Part shown: one piece after another, positions 1 to 15,643 of the stretch
Layout of the letters: every line of letters begins with the position of its first letter
How positions within the stretch are numbered: the stretch's first letter is position 1
IMG/VR virus record: IMGVR_UViG_3300026534_000004
Span: 1-43,483 of that record
Source: a virus
Lineage: Duplodnaviria; Caudoviricetes
Length of the DNA stretch: 43,483 bases
Direction: 5' to 3' (one strand)
Position numbers and translations under genes: made by a program
The notes under the pieces: generated by a model
What the model was told of the DNA's origin: nothing
Seen by the model: the letters and a program-made list of their open reading frames with translations, nothing else
Database searches by the model: none

Positions 1-49
1 TGGCGGCTTTCCGTGCCGGGCCGAACATAAATTTACGGGAATGGGGGAA

Positions 50-126
50 TGGCGCCCTCGAGACGATTCGAACGTCCGACCTACCGCTTAGGAGGCGGTT
101 GCTCTATCCGGCTGAGCTACGAGGGC
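50..126 (-). tRNA. tRNA-Arg(CCT), integration target, intact copy
   Basis: Minus strand folds as a cloverleaf: GCCCTCG acceptor stem, D arm, ACCGC-CTCCTAA-GCGGT anticodon arm, GGACG-TTCGAAT-CGTCT T arm, encoded GCCA end. Confidence 0.95.
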
Positions 127-127
127 G
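84..127 (+). repeat. att core, left copy (44 bp)
   Basis: ccgcttaggaggcggttgctctatccggctgagctacgagggcg is identical to 43357-43400. Confidence 0.95.
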
Positions 128-135
128 AGTAATAA

Positions 136-148
136 AATCAAACACTTA
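136..148 (+). promoter_or_regulatory. IHF binding site in att arm
   Basis: AATCAAACACTTA matches WATCAANNNNTTR; a second match lies by the right att. Confidence 0.7.
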
Positions 149-191
149 GCTGCTCGCGTCTCTCTTTGTCCTGCGGATTGTGTCCAAGATT

Positions 192-220
192 TGGACAATT
201 TGCGATTAAATCCGCATAAT
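192..220 (+). promoter_or_regulatory. Putative integrase promoter overlapping TGGACA-like arm-type repeats
   Basis: TGGACA-17 bp-CATAAT. Inverted repeat tgtccaa-gat-ttggaca at 181-197; TGGAYA repeats at about 234-251 and 43302-43320. Confidence 0.55.
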
Positions 221-255
221 CCGAGATCCCTGGTGGATACATAGTGGACACGGAG

Positions 256-1224
256 ATGGCGTCGATCCGCAAGACGCGGAGCGGCCGGTTTCAAGCAGTG
301 GTGCGGGTGCGCGGATACCCGACGGTGTCGCGTGTGTTCCGCACTCGCAGCCAGGCCCGAACCTGGGCGCAGCGCGTCGAGGATGATATGCGACTTGGGA
401 CCTGGCGGCAAGACGTCGGGGTCACGGTCGGGGATGTGCTCGACCGCTATCTGCGCGAGATCGTGCCGCTGAAGAAAAGCTGGGCATTCCATCGAACCAA
501 TTGCACGAATCTGGCCAAGGGGCTGGGGCGGGTCTTGCTCGCACGGCTGACAGCGCAGGACGTGGTCGCTTACGTCCGCTCCAGGCCGGTATCGCCATCC
601 ACAGTGCGCAAGGAGGTGAACACCCTGTCGCATGCCATAGATACAGCCGTGGCGCTGTGGGGGTATGAGATCACTGGTGACCCGGTGGGCAATGCAAAGC
701 GCATTTTGCGGGTGACCAAGGCGCTATCTCCTGCGCCGCCGCGCAACCGGCGCCTGGCTGACGGTGAGGAAGAGGCGCTACTGGCGGCCCTGGGCCGGTC
801 TCCAGAAACCAAGCTGCTGGCGCTGCTGACGCTGGCAACGGGCCGGCGCTTGAAAGAGTTGCTATCGATCTCCGATGAGGTGTTGGTGCGGCGCGGTGGC
901 CGCCTGCTGCTCGAGGTGCGCGATACGAAAACCGATCATCCGATCACGGTGCCGCTGTCAGCGGAGGCAGAGGCGCTGCTGGAGGGTTTCGACGGGTTCA
1001 CGATGCGGCCAGACAGCTACAGCCAGGCGTTCATGCGGGCAGTGAAGCGAGCCGGGTTGCGCGATCTTCGGCTGACGGACCTGCGGCACGAGGCGCTGTC
1101 TCGGCTGTTCGAGCGCGGGCTGTCGGTGCCGGAGGTCATGGCAATCTCAGGGCACCGAAGCCCGGATGTGTTGCTCAGGGTATATTCTCAAGTGGATGCG
1201 GATCGATTGAGTGATCGGCTATGA
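256..1224 (+). CDS. int: Tyrosine recombinase / phage integrase
   Basis: N-terminal MASIRK arm-binding-like segment; TGRRLKE, DLRHE, SGH and C-terminal Y motifs; adjacent to att. Alternative GTG start at 244. Confidence 0.92.
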   Translation: MASIRKTRSGRFQAVVRVRGYPTVSRVFRTRSQARTWAQRVEDDMRLGTWRQDVGVTVGDVLDRYLREIVPLKKSWAFHRTNCTNLAKGLGRVLLARLTAQDVVAYVRSRPVSPSTVRKEVNTLSHAIDTAVALWGYEITGDPVGNAKRILRVTKALSPAPPRNRRLADGEEEALLAALGRSPETKLLALLTLATGRRLKELLSISDEVLVRRGGRLLLEVRDTKTDHPITVPLSAEAEALLEGFDGFTMRPDSYSQAFMRAVKRAGLRDLRLTDLRHEALSRLFERGLSVPEVMAISGHRSPDVLLRVYSQVDADRLSDRL

Positions 1225-1437
1225 TTGAGCGGCCCATACCTCCAGCGCGAATTGCACTAGGTACGGGCAAGGGCGATAGCTTCGGTTCTCCGGCCGTGTC
1301 AGATATTTGCGGAACAGCGTCTCGTCAATGCCTAGCTGGCGGGCGATGGCTCGCTGTGACATGCCTATCTGCTCGATCAGTTCTCGCAGATAGGCAGGGT
1401 CTGGATTGTGCTGTGATATGTCCGGGGTGGCCATCAT
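1219..1437 (-). CDS. aca1: Anti-CRISPR-associated HTH repressor, Aca1 family
   Basis: TPDISQHNPDPAYLRELI..SQR..A..LG..YL..YRPCPYLVQFALE matches recalled Pseudomonas phage Aca1 (TPDASNHDPDPRYLRGLL...YRPAPYTVQFALE) over the full length. Confidence 0.85.
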   Translation of the reverse strand: MMATPDISQHNPDPAYLRELIEQIGMSQRAIARQLGIDETLFRKYLTRPENRSYRPCPYLVQFALEVWAAQS

Positions 1438-1745
1438 GCTCGCCCTGGTTTGTGGCTGACGGACTGCCCGCGCAGCTCCTCGATGAGCGCTTCCTGCGCT
1501 GTGTCCTCCATGACCGGATCGGGTGGCTCGCCGTTGGCACGGGCGATGGCATACCAGACAGTCAGCAACTGCGCCAGGTTGTCCTCTGGCGCGTTGAAAA
1601 ACAGGGCCTCGTCGATTCCGCTGGCGGCGCAGATACGGCGGATCACATCTGCGTCGAATTCAAGATCACCATCGGCTGTGCGGGACAGACTGAGGTCGGA
1701 AAAAGCCATCCCCTCGGGGATGGCGATGTTTACTTTGTCTTTCAT
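1434..1745 (-). CDS. Small acidic protein, candidate anti-CRISPR/anti-defence protein 3
   Basis: 103 aa, acidic, overlaps the aca1 start; function inferred from context only. Confidence 0.6.
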   Translation of the reverse strand: MKDKVNIAIPEGMAFSDLSLSRTADGDLEFDADVIRRICAASGIDEALFFNAPEDNLAQLLTVWYAIARANGEPPDPVMEDTAQEALIEELRGQSVSHKPGRA

Positions 1746-1966
1746 TATGCTTGGTCTCTGTCGCTGTCAGCCTTAATCTGGTCCAGTTCTGAGCATGATT
1801 CCCAATAGGATTTTGCCCGCTCATCCGCAGTCATCTGTCCGAATGCCTTACTCATGATTTTATAGGCCATTCCGAGCGAGACATTACTGATCCCAAGAGC
1901 TGCAAGTGGTTTAGGATCACCCGCCAAACGCGCTGCGGCTGCATCAAATAGTTTTTTGTTTTCCAT
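1745..1966 (-). CDS. Small protein, candidate anti-CRISPR/anti-defence protein 2
   Basis: 73 aa MENKKLF..., GGAGG RBS, 1-bp overlaps with both neighbours. Confidence 0.55.
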   Translation of the reverse strand: MENKKLFDAAAARLAGDPKPLAALGISNVSLGMAYKIMSKAFGQMTADERAKSYWESCSELDQIKADSDRDQA

Positions 1967-2187
1967 CACTTTTCCTCCGTCCATGCTTCTTTGTGACTGA
2001 TGATTTCTCCCGCTTCCTTGAGCTTCTCAAGACCGGCAAGTCCCTGCTCCATGGGGTAGATTGTGGGGTTTGCACCATTTACCCCGACGTGGACTTCGTT
2101 GCGTTCCTCATCGATTTTAATGGTGTATTCCTTCCCGTCATAATTGATGACCCATGTTTCAAGGTGGTTAATGGTGATGAGTGCCAT
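1966..2187 (-). CDS. Small acidic protein, candidate anti-CRISPR/anti-defence protein 1
   Basis: 73 aa MALITINH..., GAGGAGAGG RBS, first gene after the strong promoter. Confidence 0.55.
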   Translation of the reverse strand: MALITINHLETWVINYDGKEYTIKIDEERNEVHVGVNGANPTIYPMEQGLAGLEKLKEAGEIISHKEAWTEEK

Positions 2188-2248
2188 TTTCCTCTCCTCG
2201 CCCTTCCGGGCTGGTTCTGGCGCTCGGGGCCAATCCCCTGCGCTTGTG

Positions 2249-2290
2249 ATTATAGTAGCGCCATTGGTCGCTAATGTCAACAGTTTTTTT
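2249..2290 (-). promoter_or_regulatory. Strong sigma70 promoter of the acr-aca1 operon with putative Aca operator
   Basis: A-tract, TTGACA (2280-2275), 17 bp, TACTAT (2257-2252). Imperfect palindrome TAGCGCCATTGGTCGCTA (2256-2273) spans the spacer. Confidence 0.8.
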
Positions 2291-3014
2291 ACAGCCAGCC
2301 GTTTTTTTTCGCGAGGCGCCAGGCATCGGGGTAATGCTCGCGCAGGTACTCGATGCGGCCGTGCGACTCGCCAGAGCGGCCGATGATGCCGTTGCGGGCG
2401 TTTGGCCCCATGCGATGGTAGATGTCGAGGATGGGGAGGTCTCGGGTGACGATGTGGGCCCAGACATCGGTTGTACTCCAGCGTGCGATGGGCAGATAGG
2501 CTCCGCCGCCGGCGGCGTAGTTATAGGCAGCGCCGCGTTTGGCGATGAGGATGCGTCGAGCGCGGCTCTCGTCTGCGCGCAGGCCCATGACGCGGTGGGT
2601 GAGGCCGTGTTGTTCCGCGTAATCGTAAATCTGCGCGAACATTTCGTTGTGGATAGCCTGCTGGTAGTCCTCGACGGATTCCTGGGCGCGGTTGCCGCCC
2701 CATTTGTCCCAATCGAACCGGTGGAAATTCCATCCTGCGCGCTCGATCCAGCGCAGCCATTGGGCTCGATCCTCGTCCGTCCAATGGGTAGGGGTGCCAG
2801 GGTCGATCATGAGGATGGGGATGCCGGGGTGGACGCGGTGACAGAGATCGGCGACGACGGCGCTGTCTTTGCCGGCACTGAATCCTACATAGGTGACGGC
2901 TGGGTCGATGGCGCGAATGATCTCGATGGCCTGCCGCAGTTTGTTTCTATATCCTGGTGTTTGTGCGTGGCTGATGCAGGCTGCGCACCAGATGGGTGTC
3001 ATCTGGGTGGCCAC
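2289..3014 (-). CDS. cysH: CysH/PAPS-reductase-like protein (type IV-B associated)
   Basis: PP-loop VGFSAGKDS, IDPG, MGLRADES..R, PIARWSTTDVWAHI motifs; last gene of the csf operon. Confidence 0.85.
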   Translation of the reverse strand: MATQMTPIWCAACISHAQTPGYRNKLRQAIEIIRAIDPAVTYVGFSAGKDSAVVADLCHRVHPGIPILMIDPGTPTHWTDEDRAQWLRWIERAGWNFHRFDWDKWGGNRAQESVEDYQQAIHNEMFAQIYDYAEQHGLTHRVMGLRADESRARRILIAKRGAAYNYAAGGGAYLPIARWSTTDVWAHIVTRDLPILDIYHRMGPNARNGIIGRSGESHGRIEYLREHYPDAWRLAKKNGWL

Positions 3015-3520
3015 GGCATGATCTCCGGCAGGTAGATGAGGCCGCAGCCGAAGGCCCGGTTTTTCCCGATGCCGAACTGCAGCAGGCTGGCAAACCGTCC
3101 TCGATCGTGGACTTCGATGACGCCAGTTGTTTGCGCAACGCGCGCTGTCACGCCGTTTTTGATGCGGATGATTTCGTCCTCGAAGCGGACAAAGCGCAGC
3201 GTGGCCGCGTCGCCGAGTTGGCGTTTGAGCCAGTCGCGCCGGCGGAATCGATCATGGATCTCACGGCGCTTGTAGCCGTGTGCTTTCTCGCGCTTGGTGA
3301 TGACAAGATCGGCTGCAAACGACACAGGGCGCCCTGTCGGGATGCTGGACAGTGGCAGTTCAGTGCATGGATGGTGCGGCCTGGTGATGCTGAGCATCAA
3401 ATAGCCGTCGTCCATGCGGCGGTAGAGAAACTTCCTCGGCCCGTCATCGAACAGCGTGTGCAGGTGCTGGTGCACCTCATATGTCGGTATGTTTGGCAGT
3501 TTGACTTGGCTCAGAAACAC
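2999..3520 (-). CDS. cas6e: Cas6e (CasE/Cse3-like) crRNA-processing endoribonuclease
   Basis: GTG start with GGAGG RBS. MFLSQV..YEVHQHLHTLF..FLYR resembles the CasE N-terminus with the catalytic His; C-terminal Gly loop GIGKNRAFGCGL. Confidence 0.85.
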   Translation of the reverse strand: MFLSQVKLPNIPTYEVHQHLHTLFDDGPRKFLYRRMDDGYLMLSITRPHHPCTELPLSSIPTGRPVSFAADLVITKREKAHGYKRREIHDRFRRRDWLKRQLGDAATLRFVRFEDEIIRIKNGVTARVAQTTGVIEVHDRGRFASLLQFGIGKNRAFGCGLIYLPEIMPWPPR

Positions 3521-4161
3521 GGCTGTCCCTCCACGCAGTCTTCCCACCAGGGCGAGTACCAATAGGGTGGGCACCAGGGCCGCAGCGGCGCGGCCGTCCC
3601 GGTAGCAAGTTGTGCTCGCGCCGGGACGTTGCGGCGCTCCACGATGAATGCGGGGTCGATGTCCGCAAGCTCGACGCGCCATTCATGCACCGCGCCGTAG
3701 CCAGCCGCACCGTGGGGACCGATGGAGCGCACATCGTCCAGTAATTGCTGGATGTCGTCCGGCTCGCAGTCGTTGTCCATGATGAGCGCGGCGCGCCATT
3801 CTCGCGCGACGATAGTTTTGATCGGTTTGCGACGCTCCTTGAACTGGCCCGCCGCGGTGTTGATCTTCATCTTTCTGCCGAGGTTGGCGCGCTGCGATGG
3901 GTAGCGCTTGTGCAGATACTCACGGCCCTCGATGACATCACTGATCGGATAGATGTCTGTGGCGGCCCAGAGCGGTTTACCGTATTCATCAGTCCATAGA
4001 CGTGCCAGCGGGATGGGAACCGGCACTGGGCCTGTCTCCTGCATGGACGGCAGCACCTGGTGGCCTGCAGATGCCCACGCGAGCAGCGAGGCGAGGTTCT
4101 GTCTGGCCACGCCGGCAACAACCGGGGTCGTGACAGTAGCGGTGACGATCAGGCCGCGCAC
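3511..4161 (-). CDS. csf3: Csf3 / Cas5-family RAMP (type IV)
   Basis: RAMP first strand LIVTATVTTPVV, Gly loop SIGPHGAAGYGAV, C-terminal RPWCPPYW; follows the Cas7-like gene. Confidence 0.75.
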   Translation of the reverse strand: MRGLIVTATVTTPVVAGVARQNLASLLAWASAGHQVLPSMQETGPVPVPIPLARLWTDEYGKPLWAATDIYPISDVIEGREYLHKRYPSQRANLGRKMKINTAAGQFKERRKPIKTIVAREWRAALIMDNDCEPDDIQQLLDDVRSIGPHGAAGYGAVHEWRVELADIDPAFIVERRNVPARAQLATGTAAPLRPWCPPYWYSPWWEDCVEGQPCF

Positions 4162-4994
4162 AGCACTTTCTCCGTGCCGAGTGTGCCAGTGGTCAGCCCG
4201 TCGCGCATGGCATCGTGATGGCCTGCAATATGATCGAGATAGGCCTCGCCCTTATTCGGCAGCGAGGCGCAGACGATCTCGACGCGGCCACGACCTTGCC
4301 GTGCCTGACCGCCGATGTAGCGATCCCAATTATCCAGGGCGATGTCGATGCAGCCGAGGGTGGCGTCCGGGCAGAGGTCATCCAGGGTGAGTTCGATGTG
4401 GATCTTCGCGCCGGCGGCGAGCGTCTCGTAGGTGTAGAGCATCTGATTGCCATCTGAGCTGCTGCCTGTGCCGCGCGTGCGCGTCTCCTCGTCGAGCAGG
4501 TCGAACGCGGAGACCTGCCTGGCCTCATCCTCCAGCTCAGGCGCGACCAGCGCGAGGGGGTCGGCGTATTCACGTGCGACCAGCCAGGCGGCGATGCGCA
4601 GACGGGAGCGTGGCAGGATGAAGCCATCGACGGCGCCACCGAGCAGATCGAGGCTAGGGTAGAGCGAACGGATCATGTGGCCCAGCTCGATGTCGTTTGT
4701 TGGCGCCTTGGCGCCGGCCTTCATTTGCCCGCCAGAGTACAGCAGGTTGACGACGGTTTGCGGCACACTGCCGGGCGTGATGTCGAGTTCGTCAACTAGA
4801 TGATCGGCCAGTGGGGTGCGGAACAGGGTGGCGCGCAGCGCGTTCTCGCTGATGGCTGGCACCCGCGCTGGCACTCCATTGACGAGCATGTTCTGGCGCA
4901 TGAACAAGCGGGTGTTGGTCTGGTTATCGATGCCAGTTACGGTGTCACCGTGGGCAATCGGTGTGATGGTCTGCAGCGTGATCGAGTATTTCAC
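4149..4994 (-). CDS. csf2: Csf2 / Cas7-family backbone subunit (type IV)
   Basis: LQTITPIAHGD, VPAISENALRATLFR, LYSGG, PSLDLLGG, QMLYTYETLAAG, IGGQARQGRG motifs. Confidence 0.85.
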   Translation of the reverse strand: MKYSITLQTITPIAHGDTVTGIDNQTNTRLFMRQNMLVNGVPARVPAISENALRATLFRTPLADHLVDELDITPGSVPQTVVNLLYSGGQMKAGAKAPTNDIELGHMIRSLYPSLDLLGGAVDGFILPRSRLRIAAWLVAREYADPLALVAPELEDEARQVSAFDLLDEETRTRGTGSSSDGNQMLYTYETLAAGAKIHIELTLDDLCPDATLGCIDIALDNWDRYIGGQARQGRGRVEIVCASLPNKGEAYLDHIAGHHDAMRDGLTTGTLGTEKVLCAA

Positions 4995-5416
4995 AGGATG
5001 CCCTCCAGAGAATCTTCAAAATCGTCATAGTTGGATTCGGTCGTTTGCAATGCCGACCGTTTCGGTTTTTCGGCGCTGTGGATCATGCGCGCGATAGTGA
5101 CGATGCTCACCGCCTCGGTTGCCAGACAGCGCAGCACGTCGCCCTGTTGGTCTGCACGGAAGAAACCGGCAATCTGGCTGTCGAATTTCGTTGGCGGAAC
5201 AGGCCACCGCATCTTGCGTAGCAGGGCCGCCCAGAATTCCGGGATGTTGCGGCTCTGCACGGCGCACAATTCCACGCGCCCAGCCAGTACGGGATAGCGT
5301 GTCGTGCCGGTGAACAGGCCGGTGCCGTCCACCGAGTTAAAACAATCCAAGCTGAGCTTGATCAGTTTCACCGCGGTCTGTTGCGGCGGGGTCAGCGTGT
5401 CGAGCAGTGTTTGCAT
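4991..5416 (-). CDS. cas11: Cas11-like small subunit (type IV-B)
   Basis: 141 aa predicted helical protein between csf1 and csf2, the cas11 position in IV-B loci; assignment is mainly positional. Confidence 0.6.
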   Translation of the reverse strand: MQTLLDTLTPPQQTAVKLIKLSLDCFNSVDGTGLFTGTTRYPVLAGRVELCAVQSRNIPEFWAALLRKMRWPVPPTKFDSQIAGFFRADQQGDVLRCLATEAVSIVTIARMIHSAEKPKRSALQTTESNYDDFEDSLEGIL

Positions 5417-6131
5417 GAGCTCGTTTCTCCTCTTTGGTTACGCCGGCCATGAGCAGGGCCGGCAGGAATTCGGGGCGCTGGCGCAGGTTGGCCAGGGTGG
5501 ATTCCAGGCGCATGGTCTCCGCCGGGTCGCGGCTGGCGCGCTTGTAGTCGTTGAACAGCGAATGATAGATCGCGCTCTTGGCGTAGCCTGCGCGCAGGAT
5601 TGGCAGTATTTCGTCGATAGCGCGCAGCAGGTCGGCAAGATCGAATTGGCGCCACTCGCTCACGTCGTAGTCTGGCGCGTGCACATACAACCCGAACCGT
5701 TCGATGCTGGCCAGTTGGCAGCGGTGCCACAGCCGGATTTTCACGTCGGTCGTGAGCACGCCGGTAATGGCGGTTTGGCCTGGCAGGCGGGCCAGATCGC
5801 GGATGATCTGCAGCCATGGGCGCTTGTCCTGCACTACTGACTCGACCGAGATCACCGCCAGCTCAAAACCCGTCGGCGCGCTGGCGATGAAATTCCCTGG
5901 GCGCCCTTTGCCGATATCCATCAGCCAGGCGCATGGGATGCAGAAATGCGTGGCCGTGCGGAAACGGAATAGTTGCGAGTCGCCGACGGTTGTGCTCTTG
6001 ATGATCTTCTTGGTCGGCACGCCTTTGTGGCGTATTTCATCTCCACATATCATGCAGCGTCCGGATGCGGGTTCAGGATCGTGTTTCGGTGCGGGCTGTC
6101 CTGCCGACAGCCAAATGAGTTCTGACGGCAT
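5337..6131 (-). CDS. csf1: Csf1 / Cas8-like large subunit (type IV)
   Basis: 264 aa with N-terminal Zn finger (CMICG...FCIPC); first gene of the RAMP operon. Confidence 0.72.
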   Translation of the reverse strand: MPSELIWLSAGQPAPKHDPEPASGRCMICGDEIRHKGVPTKKIIKSTTVGDSQLFRFRTATHFCIPCAWLMDIGKGRPGNFIASAPTGFELAVISVESVVQDKRPWLQIIRDLARLPGQTAITGVLTTDVKIRLWHRCQLASIERFGLYVHAPDYDVSEWRQFDLADLLRAIDEILPILRAGYAKSAIYHSLFNDYKRASRDPAETMRLESTLANLRQRPEFLPALLMAGVTKEEKRAHANTARHADPAATDRGETDQAQLGLF

Positions 6132-6337
6132 CAGCTCGCCCTCCTGATCCGCCCCAACTGCTGCCGCATGGCCTCGTCCAGTAGCATGTTGAGCATGCTG
6201 CGCGGGTAGACTTTGATTTTTCCCAGGCGCACCGGCTCGGGGAAGTCGCCACGGGCGATGTATGTGCTCAACGTCTCGCGCTTGACGCGGAGCTTTTCGG
6301 CCATTTCGTCGATGGTGTAGAAGTCGTCGATTGGCAT
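6131..6337 (-). CDS. Excisionase/AlpA-like winged-HTH protein
   Basis: FYTIDEMAEKLRVKRETLSTYIARGDFPEPVRLG is a typical Xis/AlpA pattern. Confidence 0.75.
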   Translation of the reverse strand: MPIDDFYTIDEMAEKLRVKRETLSTYIARGDFPEPVRLGKIKVYPRSMLNMLLDEAMRQQLGRIRRAS

Positions 6338-6338
6338 G

Positions 6339-6686
6339 CTACCCCCTGCTGACCAGATCAGGCCGTGTGATGTGGTTGACCGGACTGATGACTCGATCGT
6401 TATCGTCGAATTCGGCAACGCCGATGTGGTCGAGGTACTCGATATATTCACCGCGCAATCCGCCGAGCGATACGCACCAGACGGGCTCCAGTGCGTCGCG
6501 CAGGTCGGCGCAGGACTCGCAGGTTTTGTACGTCGACCACTCGCCGCCCCACATCCCATTGATGACCTGGTAGCGCTCGCCAGGTTTGATCGCGCGGCGG
6601 CACTCGCAACAGATGTGCGGCTTGCGCGCGGTGTGCCAGGTTTCGTTGATCAATGTCGGTTGTTCGGTGTCGATGCAGCAGCTCAT
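6339..6686 (-). CDS. Cys-rich (Zn-binding) phage hypothetical protein
   Basis: TARKPHICCEC...YKTCESC; GGAGG RBS. Confidence 0.7.
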   Translation of the reverse strand: MSCCIDTEQPTLINETWHTARKPHICCECRRAIKPGERYQVINGMWGGEWSTYKTCESCADLRDALEPVWCVSLGGLRGEYIEYLDHIGVAEFDDNDRVISPVNHITRPDLVSRG

Positions 6687-6702
6687 TGGTCACCTCCGTT
6701 GT

Positions 6703-7338
6703 TCAGTCTCCACCGCATCGAATGGCATCAAAAATGACCTTCTTCCATTTTTTCCACCAATCCAACGCTTTTTTGTCCATTTTTTTGATGTCGTCATCAG
6801 AAAATGATTGCCAAAGCTCAATGGAATGTTGTTGGCAGCCTATTGCCAACTGATTCTTCCACCAAACAACGTGATATCGAGGTAACAACAAAGTGGAATT
6901 CGGCAAGATGCACAAACGCAAGTCAGACCCGATTAAGTTAGCTCCACTCAAGTTAGACCCGCTTAAGTTAGCTCCACTCAAGTCAGAGCCGCTTAAGTTA
7001 GCTACACTCAAGTCAGAGCCGCTTAAGTTAGCTCCACTCAAGTTAGAGCCGCTTAAGTTAGCTCCACTCAAGTTAGACCCGCTTAAGTTAGCTCCACTCA
7101 AGTTAGAGCCGCTTAAGTTAACCCCACGTAAGATAGCTCTACTCAAATCAACGTTGCATAAGACAGCTCTACTCAAGTTAGATCCACTCAAGTCAATCCT
7201 GCGCAAGACAGTTTTGTTCAAGATGGCCCGACGGCCATCTTGTCCGTTTGTCTCCAACCAGAGATTATGATCGTCTAAAATTTTTTTGATATTCATGTTT
7301 ACCTTCAGTTTGCCACTTTTCATGTCCACGGTGTTCAT
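6703..7338 (-). CDS. Pentapeptide-repeat protein
   Basis: Many (A/S)(N/D)LSG pentapeptides; C-terminal IGCQQH..W domain; start chosen at the repeated GGAG-ATG unit. Confidence 0.88.
   Translation of the reverse strand: MNTVDMKSGKLKVNMNIKKILDDHNLWLETNGQDGRRAILNKTVLRRIDLSGSNLSRAVLCNVDLSRAILRGVNLSGSNLSGANLSGSNLSGANLSGSNLSGANLSGSDLSVANLSGSDLSGANLSGSNLSGANLIGSDLRLCILPNSTLLLPRYHVVWWKNQLAIGCQQHSIELWQSFSDDDIKKMDKKALDWWKKWKKVIFDAIRCGGD
6931..7120. repeat. Near-perfect 30-bp tandem repeat (about 6 units) encoding pentapeptides
   Basis: Unit gcttaagttagctccactcaagttagaccc and minor variants, in frame. Confidence 0.9.
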
Positions 7339-7350
7339 GACGATCTCCAC
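7326..7350. repeat. 25-bp direct repeat, copy 1 (RBS+ATG unit)
   Basis: ccacggtgttcatgacgatctccac is identical at 9284-9308. Confidence 0.9.
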
Positions 7351-7402
7351 TACGTTCGCGCCATGTATTGTCTTGCAGGCCATCCAGTTTCAGGTGTTCA
7401 TC

Positions 7403-8233
7403 TCATTCCCCTCCTGCCAGCATCATCCATGCTGCTGCCGCTTGCAGCGGGACTTGGCCGTTACCGAGTGCCCTTATCCTGTCCACCCGATTGGCCACCC
7501 CATCAGCCATTCGACCCACTCCGGGTTCAGCCGTCCACCAGGCCGGACGATGCCCGCAGCGGGGTCGTTCAGTTGCCTCCTTCGCTGTCCTGGATTGCCA
7601 GCCGTTCTCCAGCAGCCCGCGTCCGGGGTTGGCCACATGGTTGCAGCCGCTGCCAGTAGCGGACGCCCATGGCTTGAGTTGCCCGCCATACTCCCAATCC
7701 CCTGCCTCGCCGTTGTCGCTGTCGGTGTCGGAAGCAGCCCGGCTTGCCAGGCACCACCATCGAGCGCGTAGGTGCGGGGCACCAATTGCGGAAGCTGGTA
7801 GCACGCACCATCGAGCGTCATACCCCATGGCGGCCAAGTCTCCAAGCACTCTGCCGAGTCCTCGAACAGTGATTGCTGGGGAGTTCTCCAGGAATATGTA
7901 TCGTGGTTGAATTTCGCCAGCCACCCGGACGACTTCCGACCAAAGGCCTGAGCGCTCGCCGTCAATGCCTGCCCCAGCTCCGGCGACTGAAATATCTTGG
8001 CAAGGGAATCCCGCATGGATGCAATCCACTCGTCCATTCCAGTCGGATGGGTTGAACAATCGGATATCTCCCTCCCACACGTGCAATTCAGGAAACCATC
8101 CATCAGATGCCCTTTTTCTCAGAACTTCGCAGCAAAATTTGTCATATTCGACAGCGCAAATTGGTTGATGGCCGAGAATTAAATCTGCTAACAAGCCTCC
8201 CCCGGCCCCGGCGAATAAGTGCATAGTCTTCAC
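7403..8233 (-). CDS. DNA cytosine-5 methyltransferase (alpha polypeptide)
   Basis: Motif I LFAGAGG, IV GFPCQD, VI ENS, VIII HLRARWW, X ALGNGQVP. Confidence 0.92.
   Translation of the reverse strand: MKTMHLFAGAGGGLLADLILGHQPICAVEYDKFCCEVLRKRASDGWFPELHVWEGDIRLFNPSDWNGRVDCIHAGFPCQDISVAGAGAGIDGERSGLWSEVVRVAGEIQPRYIFLENSPAITVRGLGRVLGDLAAMGYDARWCVLPASAIGAPHLRARWWCLASRAASDTDSDNGEAGDWEYGGQLKPWASATGSGCNHVANPGRGLLENGWQSRTAKEATERPRCGHRPAWWTAEPGVGRMADGVANRVDRIRALGNGQVPLQAAAAWMMLAGGE
7474..8103 (-). CDS. Nested alternative-frame ORF, putative MTase beta polypeptide carrying motif IX
   Basis: 209-codon open frame inside the MTase ending RLNPEWVEWLMGWPIGWT, with PTP repeats; start uncertain. Confidence 0.65.
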   Translation of the reverse strand: MDGFLNCTCGREISDCSTHPTGMDEWIASMRDSLAKIFQSPELGQALTASAQAFGRKSSGWLAKFNHDTYSWRTPQQSLFEDSAECLETWPPWGMTLDGACYQLPQLVPRTYALDGGAWQAGLLPTPTATTARQGIGSMAGNSSHGRPLLAAAATMWPTPDAGCWRTAGNPGQRRRQLNDPAAGIVRPGGRLNPEWVEWLMGWPIGWTG

Positions 8234-8259
8234 GCTGGTTTGCTCCGTAGCACTTTATG

Positions 8260-8451
8260 TTATTGCCCCTTCATTCTTTTGAGCCATCGCGTGCGCGCCG
8301 CCTTGCACCATCGGCACATGCGATAGGTGAACCGAAACGCCTCGATGGGCTCGTCTTGGTGCGGTGGATAAAGCGGCCCGATGATCTCGTCGATAACGAT
8401 CTCTCCTGGGCGTTTCCAGCAGTTCTCACATAAATCAGAACGGGATGTCAT
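8260..8451 (-). CDS. Small CxxC-containing hypothetical protein
   Basis: [11 protein letters not shown]...MCRWC; overlaps the end of ssb. Confidence 0.55.
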
Positions 8452-8839
8452 CGTCAAAATCCTGCGGCCCAGGTTGTTGCACCGGCTGCTGGGCGTTTCC
8501 GCGGCTGTCGAGCATCTGCATCTCGCTGGCAACGATCTCGGTGGTGTAGCGGTCGCTGCCGTCCTGGGCCTGCCACTTGCGGGTGCGCAGGCTGCCCTCG
8601 ATGTAAACCCTGTCTCCCTTGCCCAGGTACTGCCCGGCGATTTCCGCCAGGCGGTTGAAGAAAACCACCGTGTGCCACTCTGTGCGCTCCTGCTTCTCCC
8701 CGGTGTTTTTGTCCTTCCAGGTGTCCGATGTGGCAATCCTGATGTTCGTCACTGCCATCCCGGTGCTTGTGGCCCGCTGCTCCGGGTCCGCCCCCAGGTT
8801 GCCGATGAGAATGACCTTGTTGACGCCTCTGCTTGCCAT
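8435..8839 (-). CDS. ssb: Single-stranded DNA-binding protein
   Basis: [20 protein letters not shown]...DFDDDIPF. Confidence 0.97.
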
Positions 8840-9219
8840 TACCGCTCCTCGTCGATGTCGATGTCAGTGACAGGGCAATTCGGCGCGTGCTTGCCGGCCG
8901 GCCAGTCTTTACATGTCGCGGCACAGATGCTGCGCGCCCAATCTTCGATATGATTGAGTCGGTCGGCCATCTGTTCTAGCAAAACGGCCATTTCCGTGGC
9001 TGCGGCCATGAGACGTGCGTTTGCAGCTTGTTCTTTATTGCCTATGCGGTAACTGCCCGTTGAGGCGATTACGGTTGAGCGACACGAATCCGCGATAGGC
9101 ACCTCAAAACATGCTTGCGCATACACGCCGCCGTTGGCCACTTTCCATGGTTTTGGTGTTGTGCTGTTACGCAAAGACGCAAGTTCGCGTGCGCGTTTAA
9201 TCAGCTCGTCGTTGTTCAT
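8839..9219 (-). CDS. Phage hypothetical protein (Ead/Ea22-like N-terminus)
   Basis: TTPKPWKV...ANARLMAAA pattern; coupled to both neighbours. Confidence 0.6.
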
Positions 9220-9296
9220 TTCAACCTCGCCAACGGTGATGCCAGGAACGCAAGGATCGCGGCGCAGATCAACAGGATCAGTCCCACGGTGTTCAT
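9216..9296 (-). CDS. 26-aa hydrophobic membrane peptide
   Basis: [26 protein letters not shown] with GGAG RBS and ATGA overlap with the next gene; not in the ORF track. Confidence 0.6.
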   Translation of the reverse strand: MNTVGLILLICAAILAFLASPLARLK

Positions 9297-9308
9297 GACG
9301 ATCTCCAC
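9284..9308. repeat. 25-bp direct repeat, copy 2
   Basis: Identical to 7326-7350. Confidence 0.9.
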
Positions 9309-9338
9309 CCGCTCTTCCCCGGTGCCGTACCGGCAGGA

Positions 9339-9630
9339 CAGGGCGCCGAAAATGGCGGCGATCCGCCGGCTGGCCTGGTTTGATAGAGCGCCCCATGCTT
9401 TTGGACTTCTTGGTCCCCGCCGCTACCGGTTTCTACGTTTTACAGCGATTCGGACCTAGCGGTTTCAGTCCTAGCGGTCTACCAGGCGCGTATATGACGC
9501 ATCAGCCGGCGTCTCGCCATAAACTGTTGCCCTGCATCGAACGGCCGGGCCAGCCGCACGTGGTCGCGTCGATGCTCGCCACCCGTTTTCCCTGGCCAGC
9601 GGGTCACTGGTAGAGGTGCGCCAGGGCGCC
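9339..9630 (-). ncRNA. Putative structured non-coding RNA/leader 3' of tRNA-Thr
   Basis: Nested complementary pairs 9529-34/9339-44, 9515-20/9352-57, 9503-11/9364-72, 9481-87/9373-79, 9472-77/9420-25; separate stem 9534-40/9569-75; no convincing ORF. Confidence 0.45.
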
Positions 9631-9634
9631 GTGG

Positions 9635-9710
9635 TGGAGCCACCGCGGAGAGTCGAACTCCGAACCGACTGAGTACAAAACAGCTGCTCTGCCATTTGAG
9701 CTACGGTGGC
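9635..9710 (-). tRNA. Phage tRNA-Thr(TGT)
   Basis: GCCACCG acceptor stem, D arm, GCTGT-TTTGTAC-TCAGT anticodon arm, CGGAG-TTCGACT-CTCCG T arm, TCCA end. Confidence 0.88.
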
Positions 9711-9770
9711 GTTGTGATTCATGATGCTTTTCTATGCGTCATTCCAAGCTTTTCGCGGCTTGATCTGCCA

Positions 9771-10733
9771 CTACATCTCTGCAGCCAGCTCGTCATAGGC
9801 CGCAGCCAGTTCATCGCGCTGGATCGCATCCGGAACCAGATCGATGTTAGCGGCCGCCTCATCGAGTTCGTCGCGTGTCGTGGCCCGCTGGAGCTGGTCC
9901 ATCACCTGGGCGTATGTCATGGACGGGGTCTCCAGTGCCAGCTTGCGCTGCTTGTAGGCCTCGCGGGCCTGCTTGATGTCGTCGTCATCGGTGAGCTTGC
10001 CGGCCAGGTTCGCGACGTCTGACAGGGCTCGCATGTCGTCGGCTTTCGAGATGGCTTTCAGTACGTCCTGCAGCTCGACCGGTTGGATGTCGGCCTTGGA
10101 TTTGCGCTTGTCTGCCAGAGCGGCTTTGACGCGGCTCTTGCGGGATTTTTTGGTGGCTTTCTCCACAACCTCCGCGTCGCCCATGTCTCGCGGAATATCC
10201 TGCGCCTCTTCAGCAATGTAGATGCCTTTCAGCACGTCGGGGAACACGTCGCGCAGTGCCCAGGCGCGGGCGCGCATCTGTAGCATGCGCTTTGGATATT
10301 GCTTCCATGGGCCGGGCTTCCCGGCCAGTCCGGCGCGCTTGGCGTCCTCCATCGTGAAGGTGCGGGTTACCGGCTCTTCACCGCGGCGTTTAACGGTGCA
10401 GCTTGCAACCTCGCCGTTCTCGCCGATGTTCTCCTCGATGGACTCCAGCAGCCCGGAGCCGCGCACCAGGGCGATCATGGCGTCTCCCCAGATGGATGGG
10501 AGGCCATTGATCACAGCGATGTTCTGCATTGCCTGGAGCGGCGGAAGGCCGATCTCGGCGCCCCATTGGACAGCCACCAGCACGTTGCCTGGGTTGCCCT
10601 GGTAGTCTTTCGGCACGATACTGGACTTGGCCAGGATCTCGGAGAAACGCAGAGCCTCATCGAGGGTCTGCGGAGTCAGATTGGACAGGGTCTTATGTTC
10701 ACTCTTCTCGGCCAGTGTCGTGATATTGGACAT
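9771..10733 (-). CDS. RecT-family single-strand annealing recombinase
   Basis: VPKDYQGNPGN, QAMQNIAVING.PSIWGD, PWKQYPKRMLQMRAR..ALRDVFPDVL; adjacent to YqaJ. Confidence 0.85.
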   Translation of the reverse strand: MSNITTLAEKSEHKTLSNLTPQTLDEALRFSEILAKSSIVPKDYQGNPGNVLVAVQWGAEIGLPPLQAMQNIAVINGLPSIWGDAMIALVRGSGLLESIEENIGENGEVASCTVKRRGEEPVTRTFTMEDAKRAGLAGKPGPWKQYPKRMLQMRARAWALRDVFPDVLKGIYIAEEAQDIPRDMGDAEVVEKATKKSRKSRVKAALADKRKSKADIQPVELQDVLKAISKADDMRALSDVANLAGKLTDDDDIKQAREAYKQRKLALETPSMTYAQVMDQLQRATTRDELDEAAANIDLVPDAIQRDELAAAYDELAAEM

Positions 10734-11748
10734 GCTCAATCTCCTTCTTCTTGAGGCGCAGCACACGCGCGCCCGGTTTCTCGGTGGTGTGCCGCTCGAT
10801 CACTTCCTGCGGCGGTTTTAGTTCGGCGACGATCGCCTTCCAGTCCGTGCGGCGGCTTGGCTTGTTCTGCTTCCAAGTGGCCAGCACGCGGCCTTTGTAC
10901 TCGATGGCCTCGGCGTCCTGCGCGGCGCGGAACACAGTCATCTTGCGCTGCTTGACGATCTCTTCCAGGTCTTTGATCTCGGCCTTGAGCCGCGCGATGT
11001 CGGCCAGGGCTTCGGCCACCGTCACGTCTACGGCAACGGTTTTTCCGGCTGTGTGCGATCGCCAGATTCGGCGGCACTCGTCAGCAGTGGACGGCTCCGG
11101 CGGCATGTCGGCCTCAATGTGCTCGCGCCACCAAGTGCTAGCTGTCTCCAGCAGGTCGTCGAACAACTCGCGGTCGGCCTCGACAGTGTAGATGCAGTGC
11201 TCCCGCCCGCCGAATAACACGGCCAGGTCGCCGACAGTGGCCCCGGTAATACCGAGGTACCACTGCACCTGCAGCCAGCAGTGTTCCGGCACCTCGTCGG
11301 TGCCCGGCTCGCCCCATTCGTCCGAGCGGTTGCGGGCCAGAGCGTGGGCCGTTTTGCACTCCAGGATGCGATCGGTGGTCAGCCGGTGACCGTCGTTCAG
11401 CACCCGCACCCGCTTGGCGATCTCGGGGTTGATGACGGCGCGGTCGATGTTGGCCAGGGCCGGCGTGCCGGGGATGTGCAGGGTGAAGTTCACCCGCTGC
11501 ACACGCTGGTCGGTCACCTCGGCATAGCGTCGAGCAACCAGATCCTCGAGTGCGTGCCCCCAGTACGCAGCCTCCTCATTGATAGTGGTCTCGGTTTGCC
11601 GGCCGGTCTTGTTTAGGTACACGTCCAGCGGCGTGCGCCAGGGGTTCAGGCCGAGGATGGCGCTGATGTCGGTGCCGCCAATGCCCCGGCGGCGGACGTT
11701 CAGCCACTCATTACGGTTGTTGGTCTTTATGGCTTTGGCAGTGCTCAT
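10699..11748 (-). CDS. YqaJ-like viral recombination exonuclease
   Basis: WLNVRRRGIGGTDI, ANIDR, ILECKT, QVQWY motifs. Confidence 0.92.
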   Translation of the reverse strand: MSTAKAIKTNNRNEWLNVRRRGIGGTDISAILGLNPWRTPLDVYLNKTGRQTETTINEEAAYWGHALEDLVARRYAEVTDQRVQRVNFTLHIPGTPALANIDRAVINPEIAKRVRVLNDGHRLTTDRILECKTAHALARNRSDEWGEPGTDEVPEHCWLQVQWYLGITGATVGDLAVLFGGREHCIYTVEADRELFDDLLETASTWWREHIEADMPPEPSTADECRRIWRSHTAGKTVAVDVTVAEALADIARLKAEIKDLEEIVKQRKMTVFRAAQDAEAIEYKGRVLATWKQNKPSRRTDWKAIVAELKPPQEVIERHTTEKPGARVLRLKKKEIEHVQYHDTGREE

Positions 11749-12035
11749 GCTGCGTCCCTCCGAAACCACATATAGGGCTGCTCGGCGACTCGGTTCATGT
11801 AGGGGATCGCCATTCCGAGGATGAGCCTTCCAAGCATCTCTTCATCCTCGTTGAGGATGGCGTCCGCAATGGCGATCACGGATTGTCGTTCCCCGCCGCT
11901 TTCCCAATTCGGGACAGCATCGGGGCCGATTGCCTCCCAAATCGCCCCGGAAATCGCCAAAAAAACATGGTGATCGTCTGTTTCCATCATGCGCTCGATG
12001 AGCTCACATGCTTTGTCTGACAGCTCTTCTTTCAT
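11745..12035 (-). CDS. Hypothetical protein
   Basis: MKEELSDK..., GAGG RBS, ATGA-coupled on both sides. Confidence 0.6.
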   Translation of the reverse strand: MKEELSDKACELIERMMETDDHHVFLAISGAIWEAIGPDAVPNWESGGERQSVIAIADAILNEDEEMLGRLILGMAIPYMNRVAEQPYMWFRRDAA

Positions 12036-12133
12036 TCGTCCTCTCCCATTCCGAATTCGATGGCCATGCCGACGACGAGCGTGACGATGCCGCCGATCAC
12101 CAACCATGCGATGGCGACGGCTAAAAAAAACAT
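12032..12133 (-). CDS. 33-aa single-TM peptide
   Basis: MFFLAVAIAWLVIGGIVTLVVGMAIEFGMGEDE; GGAGG RBS; coupled to neighbours. Confidence 0.55.
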   Translation of the reverse strand: MFFLAVAIAWLVIGGIVTLVVGMAIEFGMGEDE

Positions 12134-12396
12134 CACGCTGCCTCCGTTGGATCTGCGTTCAACTGACGATGGGCGCGGTATTCGTCGATCTGAACCACTT
12201 TGGCGCGTCTGCGCGCCTCCATGGCCCGACGCTGATCTCGAATCTCGAGAATTCGACGCCAGATTCCGTTCGGCGCCAGGCTGGGCCAGCGTCCCTGGGT
12301 TTTGAACATCCGTTTTGCCCACGCGATCCTCCTTTCAATGTTTCGTTCTTTTTCCTCTGCTGCTCGTTGCAGCTCACTGGATGGTCGATAGTTCAT
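12133..12396 (-). CDS. Basic hypothetical protein, first gene of the PL operon
   Basis: MNYRPSSE..., GGAGG RBS, Arg-rich. Confidence 0.6.
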   Translation of the reverse strand: MNYRPSSELQRAAEEKERNIERRIAWAKRMFKTQGRWPSLAPNGIWRRILEIRDQRRAMEARRRAKVVQIDEYRAHRQLNADPTEAA

Positions 12397-12439
12397 GGTT
12401 TCCTCCGTCGTTGCCCGCCGTAATGGCGGTGTTGAAGGA

Positions 12440-12482
12440 AGATTAGCAACTAAAAGTTGCCATGTCAACAACCGAAAGTTGC
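12440..12482 (-). promoter_or_regulatory. PL-like promoter with two repressor operators
   Basis: TTGACA-17-TAATCT; operators GCAACTAAAAGTTGC (12446-60) and ACAACCGAAAGTTGC (12468-82). Confidence 0.82.
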
Positions 12483-12539
12483 AGCATTATGCGGTATAAC
12501 TTCATAATCACGATCAATTCACGGAAATAGGAGGGAAGG

Positions 12540-13325
12540 ATGCGCATTCCAAAGCTGGTGTCGCAGCGCCTGAGGGAAGAGGTCCCACGATTTCAGAAAG
12601 TGTTGGCCGAGGCGCGTTCGCGGGATGTGAACGAGGCCGACACCGTCATCATCGTCACCGACATTCTCGAGCGCGTCTTCGGGCTCGACAAATACACCGA
12701 AGTAACACGCGAATACGCAATCAAGGGGACCTATGTCGATCTCGCGGTGAAAATCGACGATTCGCTGCAGTATCTCATCGAGGTCAAGGCCATCGGCATG
12801 GACCTGCGTCACAACCACCTGCGTCAGGCGGTGGATTATGCGGCGAAGGAGGGCGTCAAGTGGGTGGTGCTCACCAATGGCGTCGATTGGGAGGTGCACC
12901 GTGTCGATGTGGCCGGGCAGGTCTCCAATGAACAAGTTGTCCAGTTCAACTTTCTGGAGCTTTCGATGCGCCGGCAGGAGGATCAGGAATTGCTGTTTCT
13001 GCTGTGCCGCAAGGGCCTCGATAAAGACCTGATGGACGAGTTCTATGAGCGGCAGCAGGCATGCAATCGCTTCATGATCGGTGCACTTGTCTGTGGCGAC
13101 GACGTGGCCGCGCTGGTGCGGCGTCAGCTACGCGCCATCACGCCGGGTCTCAAGGTGAGCCTGGACGAAGTGAAGGAGATCATTCGCAACGAAGTGGTCA
13201 AACGCGACATCACAGAGAGCGAGCCTGGGGTTCAAGCTCACAGAAAAGTCGCCCGGCAATTGGCGAGGCTCAAAAAGGACCGGGAGCTCCGCAAACAAGC
13301 GGCCGAGCCTTCTCAAGAGGCGTGA
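12540..13325 (+). CDS. Stand-alone HsdR N-terminal-like PD-(D/E)XK nuclease
   Basis: NEADT, VDLAV, IEVKA, QAVDYA, VLTNG motifs. Confidence 0.8.
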   Translation: MRIPKLVSQRLREEVPRFQKVLAEARSRDVNEADTVIIVTDILERVFGLDKYTEVTREYAIKGTYVDLAVKIDDSLQYLIEVKAIGMDLRHNHLRQAVDYAAKEGVKWVVLTNGVDWEVHRVDVAGQVSNEQVVQFNFLELSMRRQEDQELLFLLCRKGLDKDLMDEFYERQQACNRFMIGALVCGDDVAALVRRQLRAITPGLKVSLDEVKEIIRNEVVKRDITESEPGVQAHRKVARQLARLKKDRELRKQAAEPSQEA

Positions 13326-13380
13326 GCGTTCATTCCAAATCCACCACCACCTGCCGCACCAGTGTTGACTAGCGATGTTG

Positions 13381-14307
13381 TCAACCGTCCTCGCCTGGAG
13401 GATGCAAATTGTATTTCTTGATCACATTGCCGCTGACCGGATCAATATAGGTCGTTTCGGTAACACACAGCGTCACACTCTGTCCAATTCGGAGATCGGC
13501 AATCAATTCAGGATGACGTCTGTCGAAGCGGATCCTCGCCGTTCCTTCCTGTGTTCGCAGCTCGATTCGTCCCGTTGCAGCCAACAAGGCCACTTCGCCG
13601 GAAAGTTCAACTTGCTGTTCGGCAGGCTCTTCCACCGCCTCAAGTGCAACTCGCAACGTGGCCATTTGCGGCACAGTGGCCGACCAGTGGTAATGCTTGC
13701 CATCAGGACTGTCCCAGGAGAACTCGCAGGCCAACGATTCGCCTTCCATGGCCTCGATCAGCGCGGCAAGGCTTTTGCCGGCCCGAATACCGATGTTGTG
13801 CAGTTTTTCAATGAAGTCGCTGGTTGGCGCATTCAAAATCTCGAACAGGGCGGACAAAGCGTCCTGTACCGGCGAGTCGCCAGCCAGATCCGGCGCAACG
13901 TTCGCCGTGAGGATCATGCGCGAAGAACCGTGTGCCAATCCGGCCAAGCGCAAATCGATCATATCAGCCCACTCCCTGGGGACATGGTGAGCATCATGCT
14001 GATGGCGCAGCTTGTACGAGGCATACAACACTAGCTTGTTCAGCGGTTCTGCCAACTTGGCCACCAGATGCAGCGGCATGGAGGTATTCAGCACCTTCTG
14101 TCCGGCCAACCGCAGCTCGAAAATCTCTTTTCTGCGCCGTGCCTGCTCGATCTCGAGCGCGCGCTGAAGCTCCTGCAGGCGATCTTCCCAGGACGCCTTG
14201 AAGAAGGCGCGTGTGTGGTCTTCAAGGTCCTGGCGTTCTTCGTCATATCCGGCCATCAGGCCGCGGACGGTTTCGATTTCAGACTGAAGTTCCGCAATAC
14301 GATTCAT
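13381..14307 (-). CDS. Hypothetical protein coupled to the nucleotidyltransferase
   Basis: 308 aa with N-terminal coiled coil and beta-rich C-terminus; ATGA overlap with the upstream NTase. Confidence 0.75.
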   Translation of the reverse strand: MNRIAELQSEIETVRGLMAGYDEERQDLEDHTRAFFKASWEDRLQELQRALEIEQARRRKEIFELRLAGQKVLNTSMPLHLVAKLAEPLNKLVLYASYKLRHQHDAHHVPREWADMIDLRLAGLAHGSSRMILTANVAPDLAGDSPVQDALSALFEILNAPTSDFIEKLHNIGIRAGKSLAALIEAMEGESLACEFSWDSPDGKHYHWSATVPQMATLRVALEAVEEPAEQQVELSGEVALLAATGRIELRTQEGTARIRFDRRHPELIADLRIGQSVTLCVTETTYIDPVSGNVIKKYNLHPPGEDG

Positions 14308-15195: not shown

Positions 15196-15252
15196 ATCGC
15201 CAGTCACGACACGTTGCAGTTGTTGACAAGTGCAACTATTGGTTGCCATACT
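15176..15252 (+). promoter_or_regulatory. OR/PR region
   Basis: Operators ACAACCATAGGTTGC (15176-90) and GCAACTATTGGTTGC (15232-46) share CAAC-N5-GTTG with OL; TTGACA-18-CATACT. Confidence 0.8.
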
Positions 15253-15259
15253 CATGCGC

Positions 15260-15556: not shown

Positions 15557-15606
15557 ATGAAGGTCCCTCCATCCATCCCTCCAGCGCCAACCCTGGCGCA
15601 TTCCCC

Positions 15607-15643
15607 GGCAGTCTTTCCCCAGCGGGCTGCGCGGGGCTTTTTA
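15607..15643 (+). terminator. Possible intrinsic terminator after cro
   Basis: CCCC(A)GCG-ggctg-CGCGGGG hairpin followed by CTTTTTA. Confidence 0.45.

Follow-up and report, generated by a model that had tools for sequence, protein, structure and literature searches.

The biological function of CRISPR-Cas systems of type IV-B is a long-open question. The system described from Mycobacterium sp. JS623 (PDB 7JHY) combines four effector genes, in the order csf1, cas11, csf2 and csf3, with a CysH-like gene that carries a PP-motif and has no catalytic cysteine; it has no CRISPR array and is carried by a mobile element (PMC7937560, PMC7038947, PMC8175902). The anti-CRISPR (acr)-aca1 operons of Pseudomonas Mu-like phages such as JBD30 and MP22 place small genes first and aca1 last, behind their own sigma70 promoter with an inverted repeat between the -35 and -10 boxes and a bulged-stem hairpin in the leader (PMC8633003, PMC13551039). 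Elements that share all of these features stand side by side in the DNA analyzed here, the 43,483-nt virus record IMGVR_UViG_3300026534_000004 (Duplodnaviria; Caudoviricetes), which in its full length is called the window below. An earlier note on this DNA had read the type IV block and the acr-aca1 operon as one island, and their adjacency as guilt-by-association support for an anti-CRISPR role of type IV-B systems. The anatomy behind that reading is real, but the unit appears to be wrong: judged from sequence comparison, a type IV-B block bearing Cas6e has met an Aca1-type cassette at this locus, each being a mobile module of its own.

Reading leftward, the order is a xis-like gene, csf1, cas11, csf2, csf3, cas6e and a cysH-like gene; after a gap of 101 nt come three small acidic genes and finally aca1. 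Of the 4,913 bp from 1219 to 6131, between the xis-like gene and int, the block takes up 3,843 and the cassette about 1,070. That a Cas module and an acr operon separate these two genes had been stated in the earlier note, and its coordinates all check out. The same is true of its two junctions: csf1 overlaps the xis stop, as the csf1 ATG and the xis-like TGA have one base in common, and the cysH stop abuts the A-tract of the acr promoter, as the TAA (2289-2291) merges into the A-tract preceding the -35 box at 2280. The latter junction is covered by one 187-nt contig in the likely source run, which is not independent support. Genes within the block overlap one another (successive gaps of -80, -4, -13, -10 and -16). 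Going beyond the note, int is convergent with the block rather than co-directional, and the block also contains the Cas6e gene. The notion that xis and int are normally neighbors holds in two of three related integrase loci (L046 and contig G021:C177, where the xis-like HTH gene directly abuts a convergent integrase) and fails in the third (L045).

Related phages were compared for presence or absence of the block, as the note had proposed. Csf2 loci were gathered from three collections, and 26 non-redundant relatives were kept after the window itself, eight fragments of at most 2.3 kb and nine entries that duplicated a contig exactly or nearly so had been dropped. The closest relative, L009 (Csf2 84%), lies on contig G021:C177, where the block has 77% nucleotide identity over 3,858 nt and overlaps terS upstream and terL downstream, so that no intergenic space is left on either side. 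A cassette of the same family (aca1 55%, orfC homolog 44%, same leader) is found 21,266 nt away from it. The complete phage G001 carries three promoter-leader copies and an aca1 of 75%, with no Csf2 match. Furthermore, DNA homology ends at the csf1 start and the cysH stop, both between the window and L009 and among L003, L004 and L005. The latter three have near-identical Csf2, yet their sites differ: one block is in the head operon, one after recT and one after replication genes. Because homology ends at gene limits and blocks with near-identical Csf2 occupy different sites, the block can be described as a gene-precise, promoterless mobile unit. The gene upstream is co-oriented and within 110 nt of the block in 15 of the 19 relatives that have an upstream gene, and a strong promoter of the block's own was seen in 1 of these 19. 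The one-island claim does not survive this comparison, since the halves occur apart (G021:C177, G001) and homology stops at the cysH stop; a single conserved IV-B/acr island was rejected, as related phages offered neither joint occurrence nor shared boundaries. It is thus highly probable that two separate modules, block and cassette, lie side by side here.

The two modules also differ in their promoters. A relaxed minus-strand scan from 12.5 kb to 2.2 kb returned only two sigma70-like promoters, at 12468 (PL) and at 2280 (the cassette), and one weak hairpin terminator between them, inside a pentapeptide gene. The PL-like promoter (12440..12482, minus strand, -35 at 12468) carries two GCAAC-N5-GTTGC operators and is the likely source of block transcription. 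This CI-type palindrome occurs four times in the window at up to one mismatch, two copies at PL and two around PR/PRM only; the count is not above chance (18 of 100 shuffles reach four), and the placement is specific. No Aca1-type operator lies upstream of the block, the single copy in the window being that at 2256-2273. Since the block has no promoter and the cassette holds the only such operator, PL rather than Aca1 is likely to govern the block; since CI-type operators are confined to PL and PR, lytic rather than lysogenic expression is likely. Hence the earlier description of the cas genes as the promoterless distal part of a CI-controlled PL transcript can be kept as likely, whereas the claim of early lytic, not lysogenic, expression keeps its lytic part and loses early timing as a property of the system.

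This loss follows from the closest relative, whose block is in a terminase operon. Several loci could not be classed by context; those that could include early settings, next to recE/recT (L002, L004), primase (L001), a replication initiator (L005) or an integrase (L041), and late settings, from neck to protease (L003), terS to terL (L009), or by tail (L006), endolysin (L038) and portal (L042) genes. By gene context, coupling to lytic genes appears to recur among relatives and early expression appears not to be conserved. Because Acrs depend on being expressed rapidly when the phage enters (PMC13551039), a late position is hard to square with a sponge for CRISPR RNA (crRNA) that works at the entry stage, and it would suit the marking of progeny genomes better than the blocking of Cascade at entry. 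A block without a promoter that travels in lytic operons, whether early or late, argues against both immunity of the lysogen and an entry-stage anti-CRISPR. For the marking of progeny genomes, the late-expressed mom gene of Mu offers a comparison.

Enrichment of aca or acr genes beside type IV-B loci, which the note had wanted measured, was looked for, and aca1 stood beside the block in none of the 26 relatives (six-frame search of L001-L030, tblastn of eight later loci). An aca1 search over 20 whole records gave five matches at E 0.001, the only strong one being the distant copy on G021:C177. No paper on a type IV-B operon beside aca1 was found in a literature search that included a term search of PMC13551039; two supplements outside its scope, the list of Cas6-bearing IV-B loci of PMC7038947 and Fig. 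S10 of PMC13551039 (on PAPS reductases within operons under Aca control), could affect how new the adjacency is.

All genes of the block lie on the minus strand. The start of csf1 (5337..6131), which encodes a Cas8-like large subunit with two CxxC pairs (PADLOC typeIV_Cas8, E 3.2e-9), is the 5' boundary of the mobile block. It is overlapped by 80 nt by cas11 (4991..5416), whose small-subunit assignment relies on a weak match (PADLOC typeIV_Cas11, E 0.0011) and on the same position in relatives; an overlap of about this length (5337-5416 in the window, 9564-9643 in L001) recurs in many of them. The Cas7-like protein of csf2 (4149..4994, 281 aa) matches PADLOC type IV Cas7 at E 8.7e-34 and stays below the TIGR03115 cut-off. 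When a 43-sequence Csf2 profile was compared with the PDB, the sole good match was the IV-B Csf2 7JHY (E 4.9e-9). GenBank phages and plasmids held only distant Csf2 matches, and single-protein scans of viral contigs with Csf2 and Cas6e returned none. The Cas5-like csf3 (3511..4161; PADLOC typeIV_Cas5, E 2.6e-22) is without the N-terminal extension of relatives that have no Cas6e. This basic extension of about 25-45 aa is missing where Cas6e stands between csf3 and cysH, at four loci (the window, L009, L014 and L024), and is present in the 16 other loci compared; the extension and Cas6e may serve one purpose. For relatives without Cas6e, a non-coding RNA between csf2 and csf3 was considered and rejected, as the apparent gap of 100 nt is the Csf3 extension. 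The compact Cas6e (2999..3520, 173 aa) scores 51.4 bits against the TIGR01907 cut-off of 45.2, is one of a family of compact proteins of about 170 aa and retains the YxxH motif and the glycine-rich loop. Finally, the CysH-like PP-loop protein (2289..3014, 241 aa; PF01507, E 5.2e-10, with PDB hits) has an SAGKDS motif and lacks the conserved catalytic cysteine; among aligned CysH-like rows, the PP-motif is invariant in 16 of 16 and no catalytic cysteine is conserved.

A Csf2 of the IV-B kind, csf1, cas11 and csf3 in one operon with it, and a cysH-like gene with a PP-motif and no catalytic cysteine place the block in type IV-B. A repeat scan of the whole window found no CRISPR array, an Rfam scan of 1-17000 gave no RNA match near the block, and no DinG/RecD helicase or Cas10-like gene was present among the genes scanned in 1-15.5 kb. 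Type IV-B usually has no Cas6, and here a Cas6e stands above its profile cut-off. As PMC7038947 lists 12 Cas6-bearing loci within IV-B, we class the locus as a Cas6e-bearing variant rather than the canonical form, a kind already known; its adjacency to aca1 is what the literature search did not find elsewhere. Gene order is not fixed among the relatives: in two related phages (L039 12183-12896, L041 2648-3367) csf1 follows cysH, and the L039 Csf2 has an internal stop. A diversity-generating retroelement RNA (RF03022) lies at 7367-7495 of L024, about 3.5 kb from its Cas6e-bearing block.

The cassette, also on the minus strand, starts with a promoter (2252..2290) composed of an A-tract, the -35 box TTGACA (2280), 17 nt and the -10 box TACTAT. 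An imperfect inverted repeat within it, at 2256-2273, is likely the Aca1 operator by its sequence. The hairpin of the 5' leader (2220..2243; a 4-bp upper stem, a bulge and a 3-4-bp lower stem) has the same architecture, with a bulged stem, as the Aca1 RNA motif that has been published (PMC13551039, section 19); it is conserved in L047 and on G021:C177, and invariant in four rows, with no covariation. Three candidate anti-defense genes follow, namely orfA (1966..2187, 73 aa, pI 4.8, GC 48%), which is first after the leader, orfB (1745..1966, 73 aa, or 79 aa from the ATG at 1984, pI 5.2, GC 48%) and orfC (1434..1745, 103 aa, pI 4.3). Homologs of orfC are also found upstream of aca1 on G021:C177 (44%) and, as a fragment, in L047. 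The last gene, aca1 (1219..1437, 72 aa; PDB Aca1, E 1.1e-17), is in alignment about 52% identical to Pseudomonas phage Aca1 and is the predicted autorepressor of the cassette, which it would repress through the operator and the leader hairpin. A terminator-like hairpin inside orfC (1705-1724) was set aside, having no counterpart in the protein alignment of the G021:C177 homolog.

An aca1 homolog in last place, a promoter of its own with an inverted repeat and a hairpin in the 5' untranslated region are thus all present, and a gene of a known Acr family is not. The three small genes have no meaningful match in Pfam, NCBIfam, PADLOC, PHROG or the PDB and correspond to no known Acr; the ESM Atlas likewise gave no known Acr identity (best score 0.86, a lead only), and the predicted fold of orfC (pLDDT 61) had no match at E 0.001 in a viral structure library. 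For want of a known Acr family, we call the element an Aca1-type cassette of candidate anti-defense genes rather than a proven acr operon. Among 450 genes regulated by Aca1 or Aca2, fewer than half have been assigned a function (PMC13551039, section 23). The Aca1 recognition helix and the operator vary together, in that the window and L047 share both whereas G021:C177 and MP22 each differ in both (the JBD30 operator was taken from PMC8633003). L047 has three tandem copies of the promoter-leader at 7245-9650, each ahead of different small genes, and a chimeric orfC-aca1 fragment at 8996-9304, which suggests cassette shuffling by recombination at promoters. Small-gene cassettes of unrelated phages (L005 12440, L016 3717, L021 3993, L002 3368, L003 1346) share a leader motif ahead of them, CCGCGCC-Y-CGGG...CAGGGG, which lies after the block in the first three and 5-7 kb from it in the last two and is a candidate regulator-binding RNA element.

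What, then, might the block do? The explanation that we favor, at a probability of roughly 55%, takes block and cassette as two accessory cassettes and the block as a scaffold that binds RNA and brings the CysH-like enzyme to nucleic acid for a protective mark. The block would be made during lytic growth, in whichever operon receives it. Csf1, Cas11, Csf2 and Csf3 would assemble on an RNA, which Cas6e may trim, and the assembled complex would recruit the PP-loop enzyme to adenylate a substrate; the modification of phage DNA or of an RNA would then let the progeny resist host defense. Block and cassette would meet because both collect at anti-defense hot-spots, not as one operon. Modification genes lie inside 3 of the 26 related blocks (L008, L043, L044), and together with the invariant PP-motif they favor a complex by which an adenylating enzyme is carried to nucleic acid. 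The L008 block contains an IbrA-like PAPS-reductase, ParB and a methylase. In L043 (11277-14806), a glucosyltransferase lies inside the block and is followed by a methylase, Cas6 and Cas6e, two Cas6 types in an array-less locus. In L044, a 14-kb fragment without CasCysH, QueC and, after it, an ORF with an LDSGAF motif stand between csf1 and cas11 (4414-5858); no profile confirmed the latter, which we take from its motif to resemble deazaguanine transglycosylases. Such delivery has been put forward before, in PMC8175902 and PMC7038947, the former naming AMPylation by CasCysH. A link to DndC was not seen, as none of five host genomes, all incomplete, matched TIGR03183. Taken by itself, the modification mechanism is tentative, at somewhat less than even odds. 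Phage-serving, lytic expression of the block is likely from its genomic setting, and an anti-CRISPR role is possible.

Several points weigh against this explanation. The modified base, the substrate and the guide RNA are all without a sighting; an extra modification gene is missing from 23 of the 26 related blocks, and in phages genes of this kind tend to cluster in any case. A Cas6 was recruited in 3 of the 26 relatives (L009, L024, and L043 with its two types) and in the L014 fragment, which points to a crRNA-like RNA and would fit a sponge or the hijacking of host guides. PL transcription would have to read through 6-10 kb, as is predicted to be likely; long PL transcripts normally require antitermination, and no antitermination factor was identified. 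In L003, the block fills the neck-to-protease slot that holds acr-aca1 in MP22. In addition, a strong same-strand promoter lies within 150 nt past the block end in 5 of 23 relatives (L005, L013, L016, L021, L024), compared with 4 of 325 other gene ends, and in 5 of 19 compared with 4 of 99 ends (p 0.005) when only gaps of at least 50 nt are counted; the promoter rule was set after the data had been seen, the control ends come from in-house gene calls, and the leader motif that follows the block in L005, L016 and L021 is present away from it in L002 and L003 as well. The five relatives are not a clade. Small or unannotated genes follow the promoter in four of them and L005 ends at the first codons; by reading, one following gene in both L016 and L024 has a ribbon-helix-helix-like stretch, with a weak Pfam TacA1 match in L024. 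This enrichment implies that the adjacency of block and cassette may not be pure chance. The guilt-by-association argument is therefore weak rather than void: aca1 is missing beside the related blocks and the small genes are not known Acrs, while strong promoters, in many cases with small genes behind them, are over-represented after the block. We read this as shared use of accessory hot-spots by the block and strong-promoter cassettes, which supports counter-defense in general and not anti-CRISPR in particular.

Much of this would also suit a single counter-defense island whose type IV-B complex would act early as an anti-CRISPR, cutting the crRNA of the host and soaking it up. The direct abutment in the window, the YxxH motif of Cas6e, the promoters after related blocks and the acr slot taken by the L003 block all agree with it; such a crRNA sponge has been proposed (PMC7038947, PMC8175902), and the host genome of the closest relative (G021) carries two CRISPR arrays with cas1. 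We nevertheless hold it to be rather improbable, given that block and cassette are found apart, with no aca1 beside the relatives and no Aca1 operator upstream of the block, that the closest relative has its block in a late operon, and that a type IV-B complex did not enrich type I-E crRNA (PMC7937560). Besides, the CysH-like gene would be left unexplained, and the G021 host has no type I-E Cas6e except that of the prophage itself (the genome is incomplete); its two arrays come with Cas4/Cas1 fusion loci that we read as type I-G by gene content, a label without a profile test. A different use of host crRNA would be hijacking, in which Cas6e cuts host pre-crRNA and the Csf complex loads it and finds the phage's own protospacers, so that the CysH-like enzyme can mark or shield them. 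This would unite the recruitment of Cas6e, the invariant PP-loop enzyme and the lack of an array or Rfam RNA in the phage. It is unlikely all the same, as 23 of the 26 related blocks have no Cas6, 22 spacers from G021 gave no match longer than 15 nt to the window or to any fetched locus, and the complex of PMC7937560 showed no crRNA enrichment. In its broadest and equally unlikely form, phage type IV-B systems would be RNA-guided writers of anti-defense marks: Cas6e would capture host crRNA, the Csf complex would be steered to the targeted phage sequences, and the CysH-like mark would make Cascade or restriction enzymes fail, with repeated docking beside autoregulated anti-defense cassettes, here an aca1 operon, as the genomic trace.

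The block could instead be directed, by a guide RNA not yet found, at co-infecting phages, at plasmids or at genes of the host. Type IV-A systems act in plasmid competition (PMC7038947), and a mini-array has been reported for the IV-B locus of an archaeal virus (PMC10541130). Since neither the window nor the four Cas6-bearing loci have an array, mini-array or Rfam RNA, and since the L009 block has no intergenic space at either side to hold one, we find this quite improbable. Least probable is host immunity expressed in the lysogen. In its favor, the Class 1 effector subunits are intact and the L044 block has its own promoter; no internal promoter was found in the window block, however, most relatives are coupled to lytic genes, and the annotated 1-15.5 kb hold no array, nuclease or helicase.

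The window spans an entire integrated prophage, bounded by a 47-bp att core repeat (81-127 and 43354-43400). At the left end, the tRNA-Arg(CCT) gene (50..126, minus strand) supplies the core with its 5' half (81-127), instead of the usual 3' half. The intact tRNA lies at the int end with phage DNA upstream, and the half copy at the opposite end has a TATAAT box upstream; integration therefore appears to separate the tRNA from its host promoter. The tyrosine integrase gene int (256..1224, plus strand; PF00589, E 3.8e-14; phrog_1) overlaps the 3' end of the convergent aca1 by 6 nt. The left arm is lambdoid, with, all of them leftward, cI/cro near 15 kb, recE/recT, ssb, a C5 methylase and, as the last early-left gene upstream of the block, the xis-like HTH gene (6131..6337, minus strand; Pfam HTH_17, E 1.3e-7; phrog_66 excisionase, E 1.8e-8). 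Within this arm, two different early genes have their ribosome-binding site and opening codons within an exact 25-nt repeat (7326-7350 and 9284-9308), possibly a recombination scar, and a phage tRNA-Thr(TGT) occupies 9635-9710, in a gene-poor stretch after recT. Between PL and cI, at 12540-14756, are a rightward restriction-endonuclease-like gene (phrog_17239, phrog_4225) and, behind cI, two leftward genes (phrog_6603, phrog_9194), possibly lysogen-expressed defense cargo.

What type IV-B systems do is not settled by this locus, and the argument for one island fails. Three usable facts come out of it all the same: the mobile unit runs from the csf1 start to the cysH stop, it is a promoterless passenger of lytic operons, and it tends to dock beside small-gene cassettes with strong promoters. 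A compact six-gene block and three new Aca1-linked candidates are thereby offered for direct tests.

Compared with the JS623 system, the window differs in the compact Cas6e between csf3 and cysH and in its setting, a lambdoid prophage in which the block is coupled to lytic genes and abuts an aca1 cassette. The cassette in turn departs from the JBD30 and MP22 operons in that its small genes match no known Acr and both its recognition helix and its operator are different; it lies at the att end, whereas MP22-type acr-aca1 lies in the neck-to-protease slot. Cas-derived anti-CRISPRs (bioRxiv 10.1101/2023.06.24.545427), for which type IV queries were included, are likewise array-less cas homologs in anti-defense neighborhoods of phages. 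They are single orphan genes, cas operons having been filtered out, whereas the window has a complete six-gene operon whose Acr activity is putative only. A further comparison is with the PAPS-reductase-like and DNA-modification genes of phage anti-defense hot-spots, which share the PP-loop/PAPS-reductase fold, lie near Aca-regulated operons and have been proposed, for the PAPS-reductase-like genes, to aid evasion of restriction or phosphorothioate systems (PMC13551039, section 23). Unlike these, the CysH-like enzyme of the window, which is also without the catalytic cysteine of DndC, belongs to the operon of a Cas7-type complex, upstream of the Aca1 promoter and outside Aca1 control.

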